A model generated the notes under the pieces. The model searched no databases. It saw only the letters and a list, made by a program, of their open reading frames with translations, and was not told the origin of the DNA. Below are positions 14,871 to 38,490 of a stretch of DNA of 38,490 bases, one piece after another (the first letter of the stretch is position 1; each line of letters starts with the position of its first letter). The DNA is from Psammoneis japonica. Taxonomy: Eukaryota. The translations under genes were made by a program, and so were the position numbers. The DNA lies in the NCBI GenBank assembly GCA_008632985.1, contig QPGO01000137.1, positions 186,001 to 224,490 of the forward strand, read 5' to 3'.

Positions 14871-17800
14871 CAATCTTCATTCTGCTGACAAAAAAAGCAT
14901 GATGAAGCCATTGATTCAACGACTTCTTTTGCAAATCAAATTCCATCATCTGAGTGTTTCAACAGCAAACCTTTTCCCAATGACAGACAAAAAACAATTG
15001 CAGATGTGATCGAGCACCACCACAAAAAGAATGGTTGTTGCAGCCCACACTTTGAACAATGTTCTCCACAAAAATTGTGAAATGTGAGGTGCAAATTTTG
15101 TCCAAAAAATCACCTTCACAAATCAATCACAACATGCAAAACTTGTGAACAAGACTGTGCCACAGATGATCTTGTGAAAGAGTGCTGTGAAGACCTTTCT
15201 AAAAAATTCACATTGAACTGCATTGTGAGAGATCTGATTTGCATCAGCTAAAACATTTGATGTCAAACTGCAGCTGTGAAGAAATGCATCATCAAATGGC
15301 AAATTTTGTTTCTTCAGTGACACAAAATCTTCATCAACATGCTTTCACTTGTTTCAAAAAAGGAGAAGAAGGCAGATGTTTTCTTCCAAAAGAACAATGT
15401 AAGAGGACAGCATGTTGTGACTGTGAAGATGAAAAGATTCCTTGGTTTTTAGTTGGGATGGCAAAAAAATGAATGGAGTGTCATGCACGATGGAAACAGA
15501 ACGACATCCGATGGATGCACATGTCAATCAACACAATCCATTGATCTCAACACTGTTCAATTGCAGCGCCAATGCTCAATGTGGTGTGGGTGGGTCGCAC
15601 ATTGTGCGTTGCACCTGTTGTGCAACCAAATCAAACAAAAAGAAGAAAAACAGGCCACGGTGGATGCACGTCAATGGTCACTTGGATTGTTAAAAAAAGA
15701 AATGAGAGATCAAAACAACAGTGTTGGAAACCAGGCTCTGTTGTGGCTTCTGCTGAAAACTGCACTGTTGGAGGACCCTTGGCAAAATTTCCAATCAAGC
15801 ACAATTCCAGGTTTTCATGTTTCCAGTCATTCGCACCTGTGCCTTTTGGAGACTTTTGTGAAGAAAGAAGCGCTCTCACCAATTTGCACATGCTTCAAAA
15901 AAACAAAGCTTTTCTCAGCAGCAGCAGAGATGCTTGTTTTCATCAACCATCTGAGCCAAATTCTCTGAGTCCCTGTGAATTTTGCGCCAAATGCAAAGTT
16001 GTGAACAAACCTTGAAAAAAGGAAAACTAAATGGATCTGCTGTCTTTTCGTTCTGATGCACCACCTTCTTGTAAAAATCTTTGGGTTTCTCTAAGAGATG
16101 TGGAGGTTGTTCCATTGGCGTGCCATGGCTTGATGAAACATGATGGCAAAAACTCTGGTGGTGACATGTTTGTAGATGAAAACATCAACGACGGCAATCG
16201 TGCATCCATCGAAGACCATTGTCAAAAAATCATGTTTCTCTTCTGGAATTTTTGTCCAGAAGACACACACGAAATCGACAGTTCGCATCATCTGAAATTG
16301 AAGTCTCCAATTGAAAATGATGAGCTTGACAAAGGATGTGATGTTGAATTGCAAAATGTGCAAAATTGCAAAAACAGTTTGAATGCTTGCAGAATGCCTG
16401 AACAACTTGACAGAAAAACGATTGAACCGATTGACACCAAAGATGATTGAAGCAAGAAACCCAAAGCAACGCCAAAGGAAATGACAGATCACATTGATGA
16501 AAAATTGTCAAACATTGCAATTGACACGAACAACACATTGTTGTCGGTCGAAAACAACACAAGTGATTCGAAGGCAGACAATGCAAACAATGACGTGATG
16601 AGACAAAGAGCATCTGGCAGAGCTGGTGTGGGGAATGTAACTCCTCCATCTGTTGTTGAAGATTCAGATCCATTTTCAGAGTGCTTGGTTGCAAACAAAC
16701 AAAATGAAGAAGAGCAACCATCCAAACAACAAAAAACCAAAGACACAAGAGCATTTCCAGCATTGACCATGGACCGATTGTTGACAGCAAAAGCCAAGAG
16801 CATTCGCAGAAATGTTCAACACACAAATGACAAAGAAATGTTTGTGAAAAAGGTGGAAGCAACTGGATCACCTGCTTCAACAACCGCGTGGGCAAATGAT
16901 GCTTTTTGTGACAAGAAAATGAAACAAGCAGGCAAAAAGCAAAAAGGAGCTTTCCAATGTGCAGTTGCCAAATTTGTGCTTCAACATGTTCCAGCTCAAT
17001 GTGCAGAAGTGCATCATGCATCAAAAGCAAGAAGCACGCCAGTGAAATGGAAATCTGAATTGTGCGAGCTGAGAGGTTTGCACCCTGACAGAAAAAATTG
17101 AAGATGAGAATGTTTTTAACTGGCTCTGGTGGTTCTGGGAAAAGCCATGTTGTGAACAACATCATCGCACATGCTTCGAGATTTTGTGATTTAATCAAGC
17201 AAAAATTTGACAAGAGAACCACAGTTGCAACAGCTTTGGCTGGGGTTGCAGCAACCAGCATGCTTGGAGAACAACACACAGTGGTTTGTGAATTGATCCA
17301 AGAACTGGAAAATCAAGTGCAAAGTTAGAAAGTTCAGATGCCTCCAACACAACAAAAGAATGGAGAGAAGTTAAAATGTCAACAATCGATGAGATGTCAT
17401 TTGCAAATGTCAAAATGATTCAATCCATCAACAGTGCTTTACATGTGCTAAAACAAGACTTGAGTCGTGCTTGTGGTGGATTGCCAATGATGTCAAGTGG
17501 AGATTTTTTTCAGTTGGATCCTGTTGGCAATGACAACAACTTGATTTGTGTGGACAACACTTTAGATTTGTGGTTTGCAGAGATCAATTGCTTCATTGAG
17601 CTTGACGGGGGGCACAGATTTGACAACAAAATTTGTCAGAGTCTTCTAGAAAGGTTGCAATGTGGTGAAATGACAGACACAGACACAAAACTCACAAACT
17701 CTAGAATGGTTGGAAATGAAAACATTGAGTTTGCAAACATGCCCAACAACTTGCAAATTGCATGTCACACGAACAAAGACAGGAACACAAACAACAGCAA

Positions 17801-18514
17801 TGTCTTTTTAAGTCATTTAAAAAATGTGCGCTCACAGGAAAAGGAAAACACCACACCAAAACACACGCTGGTTGTAAAATCAAGTGGTGATCACAAATGG
17901 TCGCACAATTCATCAACTCTTGCACAATCAGCCCCAAAAGATTTCTTTGACAAAGTTGCTGAATGTGGCTGCAAAACAGTTTCAGATGATCATTTTGTTG
18001 ACCCGCTGTTAAAGCTTTGCAAAGGCACTCCAATCATGTCAGTTAAAAATGAAGATGTGCCAAATGGCGCTGCAAATGGAGCATTGTGCAAGTTGCACAA
18101 AATGGCAATTTGTCCAGGAGTGGAGGAACACATGACTCCCATGCTCCTGGATGGATTTTGGGTCAACTCCACAGAGGCCCATCACATGGAAAAACTGGTT
18201 TTAAAGCACGGGCCCAATTTCTTGGAAGAACATGAGATTTGTGGGGGGAGTCATGACTGCAAAGCACATTTTCCCATGAACTTTCTTCCTGAACATGCAA
18301 AGGAAACAAGACATGTGGCTCGAATGTCATTTCATCAATTTTGTGGCATTGTCAACAACTGCACAACCACTCACAAACTTCAAGGACAAACAAGAGACAA
18401 CCTCTGTGTCACAGCTTGGAATGAATCGAAAAGTTGGGCTTGTGTTGCTCTTTTGAGAGTCAAGACCTTAAATGGTCTTTTTGTCAAAAAACCCATTGAC
18501 AGAACCTTTGACAT

Positions 18515-18536
18515 CCCCCCCCCCCCCCCCCCCCCC
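18515..18536 (+). repeat. Poly-C tract (22 nt)
   Basis: Directly visible at the 3' end of the helicase region. Confidence 0.95.
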
Positions 18537-18795
18537 AAACAAATTGCTTTGAATGATGGATTTGTTTCATTGAACTGAACAACCACACCCTGCAAGTGAT
18601 TGCTGTTGGCCACATCACAATGACGTTCTTGAGAATGTCTTTGGTTGCAGTTGGGGAAAGCTGAAACGGATTTTAATTTCAAAGTCCTGGCACGGTCTTT
18701 TGTCAAAACGTTTGACAACCCACCTCCCATGAGCCAGTTGGCATGATTTCTACAATTGCAACTTGAGTGCAACAAATGTGGTCAAACTGACACAA

Positions 18796-27500: not shown

Positions 27501-29427
27501 CCCCTGCAACCCACTTCAAAACACAGGCAGCAAAGGATTGGTTGGCCTGGATGCAGACAATGATTGAAACCCATTGCTCTCCCCAACCATCTGCTTGAGA
27601 TCCTCTGCCAGATCCACCTCTCCCACCAGCTCAGTCACCAGTCCTTGCTGCACTCAGTGCTGCATGCACCACATTTGCGCCACCTGAGGCTGATGGCGCA
27701 ACTCTCCAGGCAGATGTGCCCCCCCACTCCTCCAGACTTGGTCGCTCCTTCATGGGACAATGTTGTGCAGAATCCCAGCCCTGGCACAGTGGCAGATCTT
27801 GCAGCTGCTTTGCTGCCCACCCCTGCCATGGACCAACATGCTGCTCAGTCAATGAGTGCTGCATCTCTTCTGGATGAATGAGGAGCTGAACTTGCTGCAT
27901 GTGATGCTGCTGCCATGGTGAGGCCCAATGCCATGCTTCCACGTGCAATCACAAAACCCCCATTTTTTGCCAAAATGCATTTCCAACCAACTGATGACAC
28001 ACTGATGAGAAGTTCCCAACATCTTGTGGGGTCACAAGTGGAGAGTTGCGTTAGTTGCAGAGCTGCCACCAAAATTCGTCCCTTGCATTTTCCCACACAA
28101 TGGAGGTGCTCCATGAAAAACTGCTTCTGTTTTCAAATGCCCAATGCCAGGAACAATGCACACCTGTTGCATCCTCACAAGACACTGGTTTGAAGCATGT
28201 GAGACCAACAATGCTTGCATCTTGGGTGCTTTTGTTGCAAAAATTTGAGTTGAGTGGGTCACACAGGATTCAAGACTCATGACTCAGGGTGTGTCTGGGC
28301 TTTGCACTCAGCAAAATGGAGAAAGAGAGGAACAACAAACTGCTGGTGACACTTGGGGCCATGAAATTTGGCTGGGTGACTCAAAAGTCTTTTGACATCA
28401 TTTGTTGATTTGGGAAATTTGGTTTCTGAAACTTTCAGTCTAGAGAGGAAATGGATGGAACAGTGTGGGACCTGTCAAAGATTTGCGATGAAGCATTTGG
28501 CAGACGTGCTGTTGCGTGTCGACTGTGGAGTTGGCCAGTTGTGGGGGTGTGCATTTTCTGCATTTTCCATGAGCAATGAAGCAGCGCTGTAGATTGGTTC
28601 CTGTCCCCACCTGCACGAAGTCCCCCATGTCCGCGCGCCGGGTGCACCCCACCCAACCACCCCACAAGCCGCTCACAACTGTCTGATGGAATCTCTCTCC
28701 TGCATTTTTTGGCGTTTTCTCTCTTTTTGAATTTCCATGCTTGTCCCTGCAAATGAGGATTTTTCTTTTACCCACATTTGAACTGCATTCAGAATCTTTG
28801 TTGCCGGGCACCACTCTAAGACTCATCTCTCCGCACACTTTTGTCTCAAACCCAAGGACACAAGCATTGGCCAAGGACAGCTCTGGCTCATCATTGGTGA
28901 GTTTGTGTGTGTCCCTCCCTGGTCATGAGCCAAAGCAATGGTTCCTCATCATTCTTCATTGCTCTGATCAGGCGGCAACGTTGCTTGGCATTGCAGCCAT
29001 TGTTTCTGATTCTGTTCAGGAGGCTTTGTCAGCTGTTGCTTCTCCATTGCTTGGCATTCATCCTTGTCCTCATTTGCTGCTGCTGCTCAGCAAGCTCTTG
29101 GTCAAGAGCAATGATTTGCATCAGTTGCCAAAGAGCTCATCTCTTGACGAACTTCTCATGGTTGGCCTGATGCCTCACCTGGACAAGAGCCAAACCAGCT
29201 CCATCATCAAGTTCTGCTCTCAGAATCATCCTCCCAACAACAAAGGCTGAGCTCTTCTAAAACATGATGTGCAAAATGCCGCAGCCACCAAGTGTTGCTC
29301 ATGGCATTTTCGAGTGTGCCATTGTCACAAAGTTTGCAAGCCAAAGCACTCCAAATCCAAGCCACTGAAGAACAAAAAAGAGCTCAGGAATGAACTCTTT
29401 CCAAACTGTCAAACATCGGGTGATTTG

Positions 29428-29820
29428 CATCTCAAGCAGTGGCAAATTTTGTCTCAAGTGGCACTGCGTTGCATCAAGCAGTGAGTGTCTTGTCTTGAGT
29501 GGCATTGTCTTGAGCAGCAAATGTCTTGGCATTGTCTCGTCTCAAATGGCGGCAACTGTCTCGAGTGCCAAATGTCATTTTGAGTGGTGCTGTGTTGTCT
29601 CAAACAGCAAATGGAAGTGCAGCATCCAACCTCAAACAGTGTTGTCTTGTGTGGTGTTCTCTCAAGTGGAAAATTTCTGGTCTCAAGTGGTGTTGCATCA
29701 TCTCGAGTGGTGAATGTCCAGTGTCTTGAGCAGCACTGAGTTGTCTTGAGTGGCAAATGCAACATCCAATCTTGAGTGCCCTTGTCTCAAGAAGCAAATT
29801 TTTGCCAGTCTCAAGTGGTG
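29428..29820 (+). repeat. Array of roughly 20 short GTCT(CG/CA/TG)AG(TG/CA)G motifs
   Basis: Repeated gtctcaagtgg, gtcttgagtgg, gtcttgagcag, tctcgagtgg and gtctcgagtgc with short irregular spacers. Confidence 0.85.
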
Positions 29821-30209
29821 CCAGCAAAGCATGCTTGGGTTTGTCCCGCGGCAACTCATGCACAAGACCCTGGGCATCCAAGGATGCATCCTCAGAAACC
29901 ACAGAAACAAGAGGCCAACCACAGTCAGCACTGAGGCACCATCAACCTTTGCGGATTTCAAAGAGATGGGCTTGTTGGCCTCTTTTCCAACATTGTCTGA
30001 GGAAGCCCTTTCAGTGGCAACCGCTGCAGCATCAGGAAAGGGCAAAGAGTCATGACCAAAAATCACAGAATCCATGACAGCCTTCTTTCCAACTGGGGAC
30101 ACACATGATCCAAAGAGGCTGCAACCACAGACCTCTTCCTCAGCAACAAACAAAAGTCAGACTCTCTGACTGCAGGACTGTCTGTTGCAGCAAGCACCAA
30201 ATCAACACC

Positions 30210-30550
30210 AGCACCCAAACCAAGCAAACCACCACCCCACAAGCCATCATCGGTGCAGACCTTCGACAACTCTCTGGTTGGCGCCGGATCAGCTTGAGAT
30301 GTGTTGAACAAGCAAAACTTGTGGGAAACCACCAAAGACGGACAAAGAGAATCAGAGCAGGAAGAAGAGAGCACCCAAACCAAGCAAACCCCCACCCCAC
30401 AAGCCATCATCAGTGCGGACCTTTGATGACTCTCCGGTTGGTGCCAGATCGGCTTCAGACATCTTGAATGAGCGAAACTTGGGGGAAACCACCAAAGAGG
30501 GACAAAGAAAATCAGAGCAGGAAGAAGAAAGCTTCTTTGCACCCAAACCA
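30210..30550. repeat. Tandem duplication, 2 x 160 bp plus a partial third start
   Basis: agcacccaaaccaagcaaacc..ccccacaagccatcatc..gggaaaccaccaaaga..aatcagagcaggaagaaga at 30210 and 30370; gcacccaaacc again at 30539. Confidence 0.9.
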
Positions 30551-31818
30551 GTGAAATGATCCAACTGACATGACATGGTGGTGATGGCAACACAAAAATC
30601 CGGTCTGTGACACAGCAGCAAGTTTCAATGGTGTTTTGAGCAAATGATCACAGCGACACTGAAAAAAAGCAGAGAGCACTTGCTGATGCAACACATGGTT
30701 AATTGTTGGGAGCAGCATTGTTGCGCTGCACTGCTCAATGTTGAGCATCGAACAAGGACAGAACAACAACAGAAAGCAAAGTGAGAAAATGGGGGGCAAT
30801 GGTTGCATGAGCAGCAGCGAGCACAATGCAAAACAACTGGAACACTTGTGGTCACATGAGTGTCATCATGAGAGGGACCAACATGAGCACATTAAGAGCA
30901 AAGCAACACATTGCAGCACAAGTGTTGCTCTCGGCGATGGGAAAGAAGAGCTCACTGTCACGCTGCTTTTTGTGAAATTCTGAGTGGCATTGTTGAGAAA
31001 ACAAGAATTCAAAAACAACGGTTGGAAAGGCATTGTGTCATCTGTGTGAACATTTGACATTTGCAATGCTCTTGTGCACATGGATGTCACAATGAAAAAG
31101 GCACCAGAAGTTCCATCAGACAGAAATGCACAGGATGAGAGAAGGTTGGGCAGGGTGCACCCAACTCACCGACATGGGGGACATCATGCAGGTGGGGACA
31201 GGAATTGTTTGGATGACCCATGGTGTGTTGCTGTTCTTCAGTCAGAGTGTTTGCTCTGCAGCACTGGAGCAGAGCGAGTGAGCGAGAGCTGCGGCGCTGA
31301 TCATCTGGGTGTCGTGCATGCATGTTGAGCACATTGCAAGACCAAGCATGCGAATGTTCTGTGTTTCTCTCCTCCTCCTCCTTTTCCTCTTCTTTTTTTT
31401 CATGAACTTGGAGCTGCCTGGCGCATGACCGGACACATCCCCAGCACGTGCTTCCCAGTTGAAGAAAAGCAGAGCTGGGCTTTCACCTTCTTCTGAGTGT
31501 TGACAGCCCCGGTCATTTGACACTCCCATCACCTGTCTGCAATCAATTGTCTTTGAATGAATGGGCCTGCAGGTCACAACTCATTGAACAATCAAAAGCT
31601 GTCATTGTTGCAGCTCACCAAAGACCGCCAATGAATTGCACAGAAAATCGCTGAAAATGCTCCCAGTTGAAGAAAAATGCACCAAGGTCATGCAAACAAT
31701 TGTGCACAATTTCTACCTGCATCTGCAACACCGTAGAACATTCAGTGCATGCACATGTCATGCGCAACCATTCACGCGTTTTTTGATGTCCGCGTCCCTC
31801 CTGCGCGCGTTTTTTTTC

Positions 31819-32369
31819 TGAACAAATGCTGATGTGCTGTCACGCACATAGGCAGTTTATGTGCCATTGGCGATTGGTCCACTGTCGCTTAATCAGTGGC
31901 CCCGGTGGCGCAACATCTCACAATTCTAGAACCTGTTGATGCTGTTCAACACTCTGTCTTGTCTTGCACCCAATTCTCAGCCATCATGGCAGCATTTGTT
32001 CACTTTGTCAGAGCCAATGCGCCACGATGTTCATCGCCTGGAACGGGCATCGCGAACGGCACGACGGTGTCGTTGCGATCGATCGATTTTTGCGGCAAGC
32101 GCCATGTTGGTCCCATGGTTGCTCGCGTGATCGCTGAGTCCTTCATGTGTGTCAACATTCATGGACATGAACGACATGCTCTTGGAGACCAGAGCTGTGA
32201 TCCGTTGGACATGACATTGGAGCATGGAATGTTTGATCATGTGGATGGAATGTGTTGGCTAAGACATGTGAACATTCGTGATTTAGATGACACAATGATT
32301 CATGTGTTGAGGTCTGTCATTTGATCACACAGATTTCATTAAAATCAAAACAGGTCATCTAATTGTTCA
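31819..32369 (+). repeat. 5' LTR (~551 bp)
   Basis: Start fixed by alignment to the 3' LTR. End inferred from inverted termini TGAACAA...TTGTTCA. Confidence 0.8.
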
Positions 32370-32550
32370 GACACCGCACATGTGGGTGCATGTCTGTTGG
32401 ATGTCATTGCTCAGGGGTGACACCGCCTGCTTGCGGGTTCGCTAAGTAGAAACCGCCAAATCGGCACGAGAACCACACATTTTTCTCACTTTCCTCCACT
32501 CACACAAGTGGATGCTCACGCGTTGAAACGCAAACAACTGCTGACACACC

Positions 32551-33972
32551 ATGGCTGCTGCCGCAGCCTTTGCCACCTGTCTCACGCATTGTGGATGCAA
32601 TGCACAGATGCGCACCCACATGGCCCGTCAAGGCTTCACTGCAGTCGAGGACCTGGAACAGGTCCCTTTGACTGAAATTGCCGACATGACAAAGGGCATT
32701 GTGAAGAGTGTGGATGCCGCCGCTGACCCTCAAGTCCGCTTTCCCCACCTGGCAAATCGCAAGCTCAAGGCACTGTGTGCATGGATTGACTGCCGCAGAG
32801 CTCGGAATCAAGAGCCGACCGCTGCTCTCTTCACTGGCGACGTCATTGGGACATGGACGGCACGTCTGACGGAACTGGAGCAATTCAAGTCCGCCGACTT
32901 GGATGACGAATCGGCTGCCAAAACCACCGTGGAACTCAAGAACCCACATGACTGGCCCACCTTCCAGGAGCTGTTGGAGACTCAACTGCGTCATCACTGC
33001 AGTGCCGTCACCGGAGTGCCCCTTGTCCACCCAGTTGGGGAACATGAAGGTGTCACCGCCAAGATGTTGGCTGCCACCTGCACTGCCATTGATGAGGACC
33101 TCACTGCCACTGCCCATCTTGCAGGAGCTCAGCACACGCAGGATGGGCAACGCCTGCATGACCTCTTGAAGAAGTCAGTGACAGGGGGGCCTGGATGGGC
33201 TTTTGTCAAACCTTCCAACCGCAGCCGCGATGGTCGCACTGCCTTCTTTGCACTTGAGAGGCAGGCGGAAGGATTGGCTGCCGCCACCACCCAAAAGAAC
33301 CGTGCTCATGCACAGATTGCCACCATGAAGTGCACCGGACGGGGTCGATTTACATTTGACCAGCACACTCAGCGTCATCAAAAGGCTCACAACGACTTGT
33401 CTGAGCTCAACGAACCTGCAGCCGAGACCAAGAAGGTCTCTGACTTTCTGAAGGGCATCTCCGACCCTGGGTTGGAAACTGGCAAGAGTGCAGTGGATGG
33501 AGACCCAACCAAGCTAGCGGACTTTGAGGCATGCCAGCAGCACATGAAAACTCTGGTCGAGAATGCCAAGAACCGCAATGCTGACACTCGCGGGGTTGCA
33601 TCCATCCAACACTGCAACAATGGGCGCACTGACCCTGGTGGGAAGCACCAACCTAAAAAGGACAAGCCCAGAATCCGGGCAGGCCATTGTCCTGTCGAAG
33701 AGTGGAGTGCTCTTGACGGCCCCGAACGAGAGCAAGTCCAAAAGCTCCGTGATGCCAAGAAGGCCGAGAAGAAACGCAAAGCTGCTGCTGCGTCCTCGGA
33801 GGCTGAGTCGGTCGATGCCAAAACTCGTGCCGCAAAGAAAGTGGCTGTCGCCGAGCCCACTTCTCAACCCACTGACACACTGAAAGACTCCAAAGAGCCT
33901 GGTGAACCTGCTGCCAATGCAGGCACCCAGCTCGGATGCAGCGTGCATGAGAAACCTCAGAAGGAGGAATGA
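32551..33972 (+). CDS. gag: Copia Gag-like protein; ORF open but heavily substituted (473 aa, no Tyr)
   Basis: ATG-initiated ORF after the LTR. Motifs TGVPLVH, GPGWAFVK..RDGRTAFFAL, RFTFDQH..HQKAH, KVSDFLKGI, GHCPVEEWSAL resemble CoDi Gag. Confidence 0.85.
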   Translation: MAAAAAFATCLTHCGCNAQMRTHMARQGFTAVEDLEQVPLTEIADMTKGIVKSVDAAADPQVRFPHLANRKLKALCAWIDCRRARNQEPTAALFTGDVIGTWTARLTELEQFKSADLDDESAAKTTVELKNPHDWPTFQELLETQLRHHCSAVTGVPLVHPVGEHEGVTAKMLAATCTAIDEDLTATAHLAGAQHTQDGQRLHDLLKKSVTGGPGWAFVKPSNRSRDGRTAFFALERQAEGLAAATTQKNRAHAQIATMKCTGRGRFTFDQHTQRHQKAHNDLSELNEPAAETKKVSDFLKGISDPGLETGKSAVDGDPTKLADFEACQQHMKTLVENAKNRNADTRGVASIQHCNNGRTDPGGKHQPKKDKPRIRAGHCPVEEWSALDGPEREQVQKLRDAKKAEKKRKAAAASSEAESVDAKTRAAKKVAVAEPTSQPTDTLKDSKEPGEPAANAGTQLGCSVHEKPQKEE

Positions 33973-36900
33973 ACAGTTGCGCCAGCACCAAAAGGCACAG
34001 AACCGATTGTCGCTGCACCTGCTGGCACTGTTTGTTTGTCTGGGCGATTCTCAAATGACACACATGTCTCTTTGTCATCTGCTGGAAATTCAGATAACGA
34101 GGCCACCACTGATTTGGACTCGCACGCTGACACGTGTGCTGTTGGGTCCAATTTTGTGATGTGCTCTGACATCGACAGAACTGTCGTGGTTCACCCCTGC
34201 TCCAAAGAGTGTGCACCAATGGAAAACATTCCTGTTTGCATGGCTGCTGCCGTGTGGGTTGATCCAACTGATGGACAACCACACCTGCTGTCAGTCCACG
34301 AGGCCATGTTTTTCGGGGACAAGATGAAGAACACCCTCCTGTGCCCCAACCAACTGTGAGCGAATGGGCTGATTGTCCACGACACCCCTCGCCAGTTTGA
34401 TCCAAGTGGCGCACACTCTGTTTCTTTCCCTGACTCGAACATCAGGATGCCATCGCGAATGCGAGGTGTTGCTTCAGTCTTTGATTCACACAAGCCAACA
34501 AAGGAGGATCTGGAGAACCTCCCCCGGCTGGAACTCACATCACCCCTGAGATGGGAGCCTTCCACTGATGCCCTGGTGCAAAAGGAGGAAGCTTGTGTGT
34601 GTGCCAGTGTGCGCCAAGGATCAGCGAAGTCGGACGGACGGTCGACGATGATGAACGCGACCAGGTGTGTTGCTTCCATTCATTCACACCAAATGTCCTG
34701 TCACGATGACAATGTCATCATGGACACCAATGACGATGATTCATTGTGTCACCGCCTGGTTGCTCAGGCAAATGTCTCCCACAACGACACTGAGGGAGAC
34801 GGGCTCCACGACCGGTGTGACTTGGATGTCCACCCGGATTGTGCCAAGCAGAAACGGGTGCATGCACTTTCGACCTCGAATCGTGCATCGACTGTCACGC
34901 CCGAGATGCTCTCTAAAAGGTGGAACATTGGCCTGACGGCCACTGAGAACACCCTTAGAGTGACGACCCAGGCAGGGGTCCGCAATGTCTGCACACCATC
35001 CGAACGGAAAGTCTGGAAGAAAGCCCCTTGGCTTAAGTTCCCTGCGATCAAGGGACGGTTCTACTCCAATCAGATGTTTTCGAAGGTTAAATCAACACAT
35101 GGCGAGATGGGAGGAAGAGCATTTGCCAACGGAAGAGGGTGTGATGGGTTCTGTCCTTGGAAGAGGAAACAGGACCACCCAGACGCCGTCATGTCATTCA
35201 TGCATGCATGACGTTGGTGCACCGCAGGTCCTTGTGTCGGATGGCGCGCCGGAAATGGCAGAAGGCCAGACCAAGGAGATCTGCAAGGAATGCAGGGGTG
35301 CACCAGGAGGTGTCCACCCCTCACAGCCCCTGGCAGAACCCAGCCGAGGCATCCATTCGTGAGTTGAAGAAAAGGGTCCGTGTGACTCTACGCCGGACTG
35401 GCGCTCACAGGCGACTGTGGTCCTGCAGCGCCAAATGGATGTGTCGCATGATTGCGACCAGCATGTCAGACATGGGAGGACGAGTCCCAGAAGAGGAGGT
35501 GACGGGTTCGACACCCGACATCTCTTCCCTCTCTCTCTTTGATTGGTGTCAACCTGTTCATCACTGCATGCCTGTGGCGGAGTTTCCACAAGAAAAGAAG
35601 TGCATTGGTCGTTGGCTCGGAGCAGCTGACAACTGCACTGACGATGTGGCATTCATCATTTTGCCCGAATCAGGCAAACCCATCATTCGGAAGGATGCAT
35701 GGGCCACACCGGAGGATGACCTTAAAACTCCAGCAATCCAGACGGATCTTGCATCGGTCGATCAAGCTTTGATCGAACGGCTTAGCATCCCGGAAAAGGA
35801 TGCCAGTGCTGACTTCCCTGAACTCCCTGACGACTTCATGGATGAATGGGACGACGCCGTTGAACCCGTGGAACCTGACGCTTCCAAACCGGAGGCTGAT
35901 GAGTGCACCCCGGAAGGGACAGATGAATGTCTCACAGCTCAAGTCATGTCACCACATGGAGGCGAGCTGACTCATGCTAGGGTCATTGCACACAAGCGAG
36001 ACAGCGACGGGGTCCCCATTGGTGCCAGGAATGATGACCCTGTCCTAGACTCGAGAACATGCGACGTGGAATTCCCTGACAAGATCCACTGATTCCTGTG
36101 CTGCTAACGCAACTGCAGAGAACCCATTCGCTCAGATCAACTCTGAAGGGAATGCCCACCAGATCATGAAGGAGATGGTCGATCACCGACGTGATGCCCG
36201 TGCTGTGACGGCCGATGACGGGCATGTGACGACCAAGACTGGCAGGCGTGCTCCCAGGAGGACGACAGTGGGCTGGGACCTGCAAGTCGAATGGAAGGAT
36301 GGGACTGCATCCTGGGTTCCTCTCAAGGATTTGAAGGAATCCAACCCAGTCGAGGTTGCTGAGCACGCTGCAGCGAACAAAGCAGCTAGTGAGCCAGCCT
36401 TTAACTGGTGGGTCCGAGACGTCTTGCGTCGCAGGTCAAGGATCCTGAAGAAAGTCAAGTCGCGTCACTGGAAACGCACGCACAAGTTCGGAATTGAACT
36501 CCCAAAATCTGTTGAGGAAGCTGTGGAGACAGATGACAGAACGGGGACCGATTTCTGGTTCAAAGCCATCGAGAAGGAAATGCGCAACATCATGCCTGCA
36601 TTCGAATTCCGCGATGACGATGCCGCACCGGTCGGGTGCAAACACATTGACTGTCACATGATCTTTGACATCAAGAGCACTCTCCAACGCAAAGCGAGGT
36701 TCGTGGCCGGAGGCCATCAAACCGATCCACCTGAGGAATCGACATGTTCCAGCGTGGTTTCGCGTGATGGTGTTAGGATGGCATTCACTGTGGCAGCTCT
36801 GAATGACCTGGAGGTCCTGAGTGCTGACGTTCAGAATGCCCACTTGAGTGCACACACTAAGGAGAAGTGTTGCACTGCTGCTGGCCTGGAATTTGGGAAG

Positions 36901-38183
36901 CAGAACGAAGGAAGGCCGGTGGTCATTGTCCGTGCCTTGCATGGTCTCAAATCTTCAGGTGCAAGATTTAGGGAGCACATGGCAGCTGCTCTGCGGGACG
37001 CTGGGTTTGAGTCTTGCAAGGCTGACCCGGATGTCTGGATGCGGGCTGCGGTTAAGCCGGATGGCTTCAAGTGCTGGGAATGTGCACTTGTCTACGTGGA
37101 CGACTTGTTGTGCATCTCCCATGAACCTCAGAAGGTCATGGATTGTATGAGCTCCAGGTGCACGCTCAAGGACAGAAGCGTCTGTGAGCCGGAAGAGCAC
37201 TTGGGCGCCCAGATTAGAAAGTGCCAGCTGTCTGACTCGGACGGCAAGACACGCTGGGCCATGTCCTCTGACCTTCATGTCAAAAGGGCATCAGCTGACG
37301 TTGAATTAGAGCTTAAGAAAACTGACAGACGTCTTCCAATGAAGGCGTCAACGCCCTTGAGCTCGGGACACAGGCCTGAACTGGACGGTTCACCTGAGTT
37401 GAACGCCAAAACGGCTAACTGCCATCAAGGCCTTGTTGGTGTGCTGCGGTGGGTGGTTGAACTGGGGTGAGTGGACATTTTTGTCGCTGTCTTGCTCATG
37501 TCCTCCTACTCAGCGGCACCACGAGTTGGACACCTGGACGAGGTGCTCCATGTCTTTGCATGCTTGAAAGCTCATTCTAAGTCTGCGCCAGTGTTCGACG
37601 ACACTGAGCCTGTCTTTGACGAGAGTTGCTTTGCCAAGTGTGATTGGGAAGAATGTTGCCCTGGCGCGGCTGAACCAATGCCGCCGAACATGCCGGAGGC
37701 ACGCGGGAATGGCGTGACTGCTGCTTGCTTTGTTGCTTTGTCGATGCTGATCACGCCGGATGCCGTGTGACATGCAGGTCCCACACTGGGATCCTGATCT
37801 TTGTCCAACGAGTGCCCATCTTGTGTCACTCTAAGCGGCAGAATGCCGCAGAGTCCTCCACTTTTGGGTCGGAGTTCGTGGCTGTGAAGACTGCAGTGGA
37901 GCAAATTGAAGCCTTGCGTTGCAAGCTTCGGATGCTCGGAATCCCCATGGATGGGGCCACGACGTTTCTGCGACAATGAGCTGTCTTCAAGAACTCAACT
38001 AAACCAGAGTCTACTTTGAAGAAGAAGCATAATGCAATTGCCTGTCACAGGACTCGTGAGGCACAAGCCGCTGGAATGGCGCGCATTGCTTGAGAAGACA
38101 GACGCACGAATCTAGCGGACGTGCCAACTGAGTTGTTGCCTGGACCGAAGCTCTGGGAAATCACAAGTCACATCCCATGGTGA
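33973..38183 (+). pseudogene. pol: Copia pol (protease, integrase, RT, RNase H) with stops and frameshifts
   Basis: PR DLDSHADTCAVG; IN LSKRWNIG, VGAPQVLVSDGA, PHSPWQNPAEASIRELK; RT CHMIFDIK..RKARFVAGGH, ADVQNAHL, RALHGLKSSG, DPDVWMR, LVYVDDLL; RH FVDADHAG..RSHTG, ESSTFGSEFVA, FCDN, LKKKHN, NLAD. In-frame TGAs at 34357 and 37468; frameshifts near 35205, 35295, 36085, 37730 and 37980. Confidence 0.95.
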
Positions 38184-38314
38184 GTCCCAAAAGGGGACAA
38201 ACCGAACGGGTTTGCCATGCAGGTGCGGCTTTTCCCACCCCCAAAATTTGATTGCTGCCCTGGACATCAGGTTGCATTTGTCTGTCGATCTGGCCCGAGC
38301 GGAGCTGGTGTCAG

Positions 38315-38325
38315 TTTGAGGGGAC
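38315..38325 (+). other. Polypurine tract
   Basis: tttgaggggac lies immediately before the 3' LTR start TG at 38326. Confidence 0.75.
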
Positions 38326-38490
38326 TGAACAAATGCTGACATGCTGTCATGAACACAGGCAGTTTATGTGCTGTTGGCGATTGGTCCACTGTCGCTTGAT
38401 TGGTGGCCCCGGCAGCGTGACATCTCACAATTCTAGAACCTGTTGATGCTGTTCAACACTCTGTCTTGTCTTGCACCCAATTCTCAGCTG
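38326..38490 (+). repeat. 3' LTR (partial)
   Basis: 165 bp aligns without gaps to 31819-31983 with 16 mismatches. Confidence 0.95.

Follow-up and report, generated by a model that had tools for sequence, protein, structure and literature searches.

Flank-graded loss of TpA from mobile DNA of the diatom Psammoneis japonica and its possible origin in adenine deamination

The window analysed here is a stretch of 38,490 nucleotides from the diatom Psammoneis japonica (assembly GCA_008632985.1, contig QPGO01000137.1, positions 186,001-224,490 of the forward strand; positions below are numbered from its first letter). All of it (1-38490) forms a TA-poor block, in which the observed/expected ratio of TA is 0.01-0.20 in every kilobase and TG and CA are elevated. 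The window closes with a forward-strand mobile element made up of a 5' long terminal repeat (LTR; 31818-31983, ends approximate), a gag-like open frame of 473 amino acids (32551-33972; labelled from its position, with no Pfam match at E 0.01), a pol stretch carrying an RVT_2 domain (36121-37467; domain at residues 170-349, E 2e-10) and a 3' LTR (38325-38490) that ends both the window and the contig. The two LTRs and the RVT_2 domain within 31818-38490 identify a Ty1/copia LTR retrotransposon, which we take, from its motifs and without a tree, to be of the diatom CoDi type. Its LTRs differ at TA sites (TA against CA, TA against TG), at TG/CA swaps and at CpG changes. The pol stretch contains a single Tyr among 449 residues, compared with 15 among 644 in the least converted copy (L031), conversion being the change of TA to TG or CA. 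Conversion at this element and its relatives follows a graded flank rule, proceeds on both strands and took place after insertion; adenine deamination in chromosomal DNA would be its simplest chemistry.

An initial annotation of the element had counted by eye the TA sites remaining in its interior, classed them by flanking purine (R) or pyrimidine (Y), and read the excess of YTAR as the mark of a mutagen preferring the A of 5'-TAY. A script count over 32400-38320 returned exactly the same tally, namely 36 sites (0.12 of expectation), of which 26 are YTAR, 6 YTAY, 3 RTAR and 1 RTAY. A null model built on local flank frequencies expects 9.9, 9.0, 9.0 and 8.2, respectively (chi-square p = 3.6e-8), and the same skew is found elsewhere in the window (1-31800; 78, 25, 31 and 3). 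The remark that YTAR is not immune was equally accurate, the TTAAT/TTGAT difference between the LTRs being located at 31891. One of the RTAR sites, at 34095, is probably a new TA rather than a survivor, because all 12 other copies spanning it carry TG. Two of the remaining sites on the forward strand are TACG, in which the TA stands beside a CpG: one at 35389-35392, where TA is also kept in 14 of 18 other copies, and one at 37093-37096, in the YVDD motif of the reverse transcriptase (RT), where it is kept in 12 of 20.

A genome search with the Copia element gave 50 matches at 30 loci, four of which are lightly converted (TA 0.49-0.70). Twenty copies, four of them lightly converted, were fetched at length and aligned with the window. 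Compared with one light copy, L032, the window keeps 22 of 51 YTAR, 6 of 65 YTAY, 1 of 43 RTAR and none of 45 RTAY sites; L032 is itself about 30% converted, and single-reference calls were therefore replaced by calls from alignment columns. There are 372 TA-type columns, or 321 after overlapping TATA is dropped, and at these the window keeps 25 of 60 YTAR, 6 of 92 YTAY, 2 of 43 RTAR and 0 of 64 RTAY sites within 32400-38320. Survival in the same four classes is 0.28, 0.067, 0.092 and 0.009 in the 16 other converted copies and 0.82, 0.61, 0.61 and 0.38 in the four light ones, both sets omitting the first 1000 columns, where some copies are shielded. With the ancestral state counted, the predicted order of conversion (RTAY > YTAY = RTAR > YTAR) holds in the Copia family, and rates corrected for ancestral tetramers remain unequal, so that the equality which was to overturn the prediction did not appear.

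A second, unrelated repeat family occupies part of the window on the reverse strand (1-2968). It is of LTR type by eye, its 412-residue frame has no Pfam match, and its 22 aligned copies provide an independent replicate of the flank rule. Here survival is 0.232 for YTAY and 0.248 for YTAR, and the window's own copy keeps 10 of 34 YTAY and 4 of 34 YTAR sites. The claim that YTAR is the best-surviving context is thus correct for the Copia family and does not carry over to the second, in which YTAY does about as well.

The YTAR survivors might be attributed to ancestral composition, codon selection or a sequencing artefact. Coding ancestors have no in-frame TAA or TAG, and YTA arises from Leu codons, so that composition varies by frame, and the assembly platform is not on record. 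YTAR is, however, the rarest class in unconverted DNA (YTAR/YTAY/RTAR/RTAY 476/762/708/751 in 73 kb of normal DNA, compared with 248/89/99/12 in 126 TA-poor kilobases). A metagenome search with the RT of L031 gave 17 loci, all of normal TA content (0.57-0.95), and RTAY is commoner than YTAR in all 17; a search with the converted RT of the window gave no match, and, as Tyr-bearing search patterns favour unconverted copies, these results are uninformative on spread in other species. Against codon selection, YTAR survives most and RTAY least in every codon phase that has them. Base modifications could mislead a long-read basecaller in a context-dependent way. Contigs from a run designated X1, which contains 0.52 of the sampled words and may be the source sample (library not on record), match the flank at 29000-31584, where 3 TA stand against about 103 expected, and none of the 30 listed differences restores a TA. 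Three of these differences are TG/CA swaps and there is one TA to TG change, which therefore mark alleles or close copies converted separately. Judged from these sequences, composition and codon selection are refuted and an artefact is unlikely, so that taken together they form a very improbable account; the survivor bias is a difference in rate and not a product of ancestral composition or codon selection, nor, in all likelihood, of assembly error.

Survivor counts alone cannot separate a preference for TAY from one for RTA, because YTAR lacks both motifs on both strands; only the direction of the product decides between them. At mixed sites of the Copia family the change fell on the A before a pyrimidine in 649 of 1037 events (649 against 388), and this A won at 78 sites against 22, with 11 ties (p = 1.6e-8). 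The second family gave 851 of 1234 events (851:383) and 69 sites against 13. In a competing-rate model a pure RTA preference was rejected (negative log-likelihood 4136, against 3951 for TAY and 4160 for the null), and RTA alone has no effect in the second family. Product direction in both families thus upholds the preference proposed in the initial annotation, in a weaker form: it is graded, at 2.3-2.9-fold, it is one of several terms, and TACG, although a TAY, is slow. Two further figures tell against a simple TAY rule. Within the window copy alone the direction at mixed sites is weak (68:59), and a purely strand-specific rule predicts, by arithmetic from survival, a direction bias of about 0.77, whereas 0.63 is seen. 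The weight that had been placed on TAY as the Tyr codon was misplaced; in-frame Tyr sites convert like out-of-frame TAY, which are converted as fully, and by this measure the match is a coincidence.

A fuller rule was obtained from a pooled fit to 441 sites (262 Copia, 179 second family) and 7777 site-by-copy observations, with intervals by site bootstrap. Taking the mutated A as position 0 and the preceding T as -1, position -3 on one strand pairs with +2 on the other. A pyrimidine at +1 raises the rate 2.69-fold (2.34-3.18; 2.90 in the Copia family, 2.55 in the second), with T and C equal (1.01), and YTAR survives because both of its adenines lack this fast neighbour. The rate is multiplied by 0.56 for A at +2 (0.54 and 0.56 in the two families), by 0.47 for T at -3 (0.47 in each), by 0.52 for TACG (0.43-0.64; 0.53 and 0.54) and by 0.24 for CGTA (0.18-0.32; 0.26 and 0.23). 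The two families concur on all of these terms, also when the protected end of the second family is left out, while a purine at -2 is about 1.3-2 times faster but unstable (A 2.19 and G 1.84 in the Copia family, 1.23 and 1.47 in the second). Survival of YTACG is 0.33 in the Copia family compared with 0.054 for YTACH, where H is any base but G (14 and 57 sites, p 2e-5), and 0.45 compared with 0.20 in the second family. At six other offsets a CpG protects to no comparable degree (0.79-1.30), and a C at -3 that is not part of a CpG brings no slowdown (0.97). Copies in which the adjacent CpG has been lost convert 1.38 times faster (1.14-1.73) after adjustment for exposure, a value that supersedes the unadjusted per-copy association of lost CpG with lost TA, which copy age confounds. 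CGTA protection is unequal between the two adenines of a site (18 and 140 events). As derived from these alignments, the flank rule itself is very probably right.

Conversion is close to confined to TA and to transitions. A>G changes were found in 906 of 1545 cases after T, compared with 2-5% after other bases, and TA-type columns hold 7721 TG or CA states against 55 single transversion states, although the column filter itself limits the transversions that can be counted. Of 3189 events in 17 converted copies, 1587 are TG; the window copy has 109 TG and 107 CA. Both products occur among the copies at 136 of 153 well-covered sites, with a median pairwise concordance of 0.57, and from this and the LTR differences it follows that conversion came after insertion, separately in each copy. 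Neighbouring events show no strand coordination (0.49; permutation p 0.66-0.83), even within 10 bases, where 520 of 1079 share direction against a permutation mean of 532. This rules out a processive single-strand attack and, with the strand symmetry, excludes RNA editing of the element and disfavours long single-stranded patches. Spatial clustering is only weak, in the four light copies (odds ratio 1.3-1.6). Outside TA, rare A>G singletons run at 5.8, 4.8 and 4.6 per 1000 at AA, CA and GA; an apparent contrast between AA (4.6%) and GA (1.9%) was gone with singletons only and was treated as shared lineage changes.

TA-poor and CpG-poor blocks overlap for the most part. In the same copies the decay of CpG is indifferent to flanking R or Y (0.71-0.74 kept). 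Of 221 kilobases sampled, the window and its contig among them, 126 are TA-poor. TA-poor and normal blocks alternate sharply, and nine deaminase gene loci among those sampled are normal, annotation of the TA-poor blocks being partial. Lightly converted copies of both families are L031 and L095, which share contig C160, and L032 (C356), L033 (C196) and L034 (C406); because two lie on C160, conversion is suggested to depend on region. At the other extreme, L046 is almost wholly converted (66 of 68). In L035 and L043 (G000:C12 and C65) the body is converted and the 5' LTR and leader, the first 1 kb, keep 35 of 46 and 34 of 46 TA, while the window copy keeps 5 of 44 over the first 1 kb of the element. 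Copies of the second family likewise retain TA at their far end (147 of 390), and some copies seem to have a shielded promoter region. Elsewhere in the window, a weak PIF1 helicase match at 17292-18578 (E 0.0009, under the cut-off) perhaps marks a decayed Helitron-like element, which is TA-poor too.

We turn from the rates, the timing and the strand symmetry to what might produce them, and give a probability of roughly 55% to adenine deamination in chromosomal DNA. A host process would change A:T to G:C at TA in silenced, repeat-rich chromosomal blocks after insertion, acting on individual sites of either strand, with TA nearly obligatory and the flanks setting a graded rate. The adenine would become inosine, read as G, through an enzyme that flips the base from duplex DNA. 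As -3 pairs with +2, one feature two bases 5' of TA, a T or the C of a CpG, slows both adenines. C at -3 slows only inside CpG, and T and 5-methylcytosine (5mC) share a major-groove methyl, which suggests that the mutator senses, and may be hindered by, a 5-methyl group at that position in duplex DNA. DNMT5-dependent methylation has been described on diatom transposons (PMC9998398).

Several observations weigh against this account. The deaminase loci that were translated look like tRNA or metabolic enzymes of the usual kinds, and nothing links any of them to the process. A following pyrimidine is also favoured by the rare A>G changes outside both TA and CG (7.3 compared with 3.2 per 1000, 2.3-fold, p 2e-12, both families). 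This may come from the physics of DNA in general and not from an enzyme pocket, and could be either mutator leakage or a bias of the genome as a whole. Three loci (L076, L077 and L078) are TA-poor yet largely keep their CpG, the families disagree on the -2 term, survival within YTAR spans 0 to 1 between sites, and the column filter tempers the transversion count. The CpG effect could instead reflect the CG step as such, and the mimicry between T and 5mC is not exact, because the CGTA effect (0.24) is stronger than that of T (0.47). That the pattern is an enzyme's sequence signature, as the initial annotation held, is likely from these alignments, though we infer it rather than observe it, given the same +1 bias outside TA.

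The flank rule could arise, wholly or in part, from DNA mechanics, a possible but less favoured origin that is compatible with adenine deamination. An A between pyrimidines would stack weakly and flip easily and TT-TA-AA tracts would be stiff, so that any flipping or damaging agent would show the rule. The +1 bias outside TA fits this, as do the mixed-site bias of 0.63, below the strand-specific prediction, and the similar size of the mirror-image -3 T and +2 A terms, which imply action on the whole site. However, CpG decay in the same copies lacks such a flank bias, the protection at CGTA depends on position and differs between the two adenines, the bias outside TA could be leakage of the same enzyme, and the roughly 100-fold selectivity for TA needs a specific agent. 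Alternatively, a Y-family polymerase (eta- or iota-like) could insert G across from template T while methylated repeats are being repaired, in the manner of the A:T phase of antibody hypermutation. Five loci of the Y-family (IMS) type are present (6 matches), TA loss mostly tracks CpG loss, and polymerase eta yields WA hot spots, as reported in PMC6423074. Yet AA is not hot, transversions are rare, and an adjacent CpG protects instead of promoting. Gap filling is also expected to give same-strand clusters, and none is seen even at 10 bases or less. We consider a polymerase unlikely, and a DNA adenine deaminase more likely than polymerase eta, because both strands are hit independently, almost all changes are transitions and AA is no hot spot.

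Two further routes would alter the chemistry rather than the site. The A of TAY pairs with the T of RTA, and sequence cannot separate the two strands of that pair, so the T of 5'-RTA could be the base attacked; thymine that is oxidised or alkylated at O4 can pair with G. This has no positive evidence in its favour, and a Tet_JBP search of the genome gave 0 matches, although control genomes likewise gave none, so that absence is not demonstrated; we find it about as hard to credit as a polymerase. Alternatively, TA adenines in silenced blocks might first be methylated to N6-methyladenine (6mA) and later deaminated to inosine, making the flank rule that of a methyltransferase. Such a route would parallel the co-occurring CpG decay and account for unlinked events on both strands, but the familiar eukaryotic 6mA sits at ApT rather than TpA, and we rank it lower still.

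If adenine is deaminated directly, the genome offers several places to look. It encodes a TadA-like protein, whose nearest Atlas cluster is mostly Bacillariophyta (15 members with known phylum), an ADAT2-like protein whose gene lies on G000:C26, two A_deamin (ADAT1/ADAR-type) genes (G000:C79:344558-345390 and C40:112674-113392; L081 and L079), and many C5 methylases. Neither these nor the Y-family loci have a known link with the process. One A_deamin gene would suffice for tRNA editing, and the second is a candidate for the mutator; one exon of this second locus had no usable match in the Atlas. By eye, L055 (G000:C79:88500-88676) joins a deaminase domain and a 2-oxoglutarate dioxygenase-like region in one open frame. 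The C5 DNA methylase family has 27 matches, on G000:C43, C10, C59, C78, C27, C297 and C301 (L141-L155), some with internal stops and three or more on contig C297.

The flank rule (TAY above TAR; TACG, CGTA and T at -3 slow) is a fingerprint, by which a small panel of oligonucleotides could accept or reject enzyme candidates, and it already speaks against a signature of the plain TadA, BjADAT2 or polymerase eta type. A natural A-to-G editor of duplex DNA, if true, would bear on the theory of genome defence and on base-editing tools. More tentatively, diatoms may carry a natural adenine deaminase that edits duplex chromosomal DNA at TpA and is directed against silenced mobile DNA, reading major-groove methyl groups on both strands and blocked by the methyl of T or 5mC two bases 5' of TA; this would be a genome defence shared with, or parallel to, that of the alga Bigelowiella natans.

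Known systems share parts of this pattern. Fungal RIP (repeat-induced point mutation) also makes post-insertion transitions at one dinucleotide in repeats, killing the element, but it turns CpA into TpA, the opposite of the loss seen here, where C>T before A amounts to 0.1-0.2%. ADAR-type editing changes A to G on the transcribed strand only and favours a 3' G; as an explanation through the RNA of the element it was rejected, the strands being equal and G at +1 reaching only 1.14 relative to A, far below a pyrimidine. Natural TadA requires YTACGAA within an RNA stem-loop, C>T at +1 abolishing editing (PMC12255301), and engineered adenine base editors favour T before the A, with C after it raising and A after it lowering editing (PMC8989541). 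T at -1 and a pyrimidine at +1 are favoured here as well, but TAT equals TAC (1.01), a purine at -2 speeds conversion relative to a pyrimidine, and the T preference of ABE8e and ABE20m, 25-52%, contrasts with the roughly 100-fold selectivity for TA. A TACG hot spot of TadA type was rejected, TACG being slow (0.52), though CpG methylation could mask such a preference. The amphioxus deaminase BjADAT2/3 is, like the agent proposed here, a natural eukaryotic enzyme deaminating A in DNA; as described in PMC10354150 it prefers GAA (adenine), TCG (cytosine) and hairpin loops, whereas neither GA nor A at +1 is favoured in P. japonica. WA mutagenesis by polymerase eta (PMC6423074) also strikes A:T, with TA among its hot spots, but here AA is not hot and events lack strand coordination.

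The nearest parallel is the TpA hypermutation of integrated viral DNA in B. natans (Mettrop et al., bioRxiv 10.64898/2026.01.13.699255), the only relevant item in a literature search that found no published report of TpA loss in a diatom and that excludes most subscription papers. According to the preprint, the TpA spectrum appears there de novo in mutation-accumulation lines, at about 1000 times the background rate; sequences poor in TpA are enriched for RT and DDE domains, and a DNA adenine deaminase is proposed. In its main text the words 'context', 'trinucleotide', 'flanking' and 'diatom' have 0 occurrences, and no flank rule is given. Both systems turn TpA into TpG or CpA through A:T to G:C changes that strike either strand and keep to certain regions, and in P. 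japonica too the transitions are nearly confined to TpA, affect both strands and fall in blocks of mobile DNA. They differ in that B. natans is a rhizarian with single-copy viral inserts, and P. japonica a diatom in which repeats have undergone near-complete conversion. TpA hypermutation is therefore already in print, and the quantitative flank rule adds to it; if both algae share one system, that rule predicts the pattern to be found among the 231 B. natans mutations.

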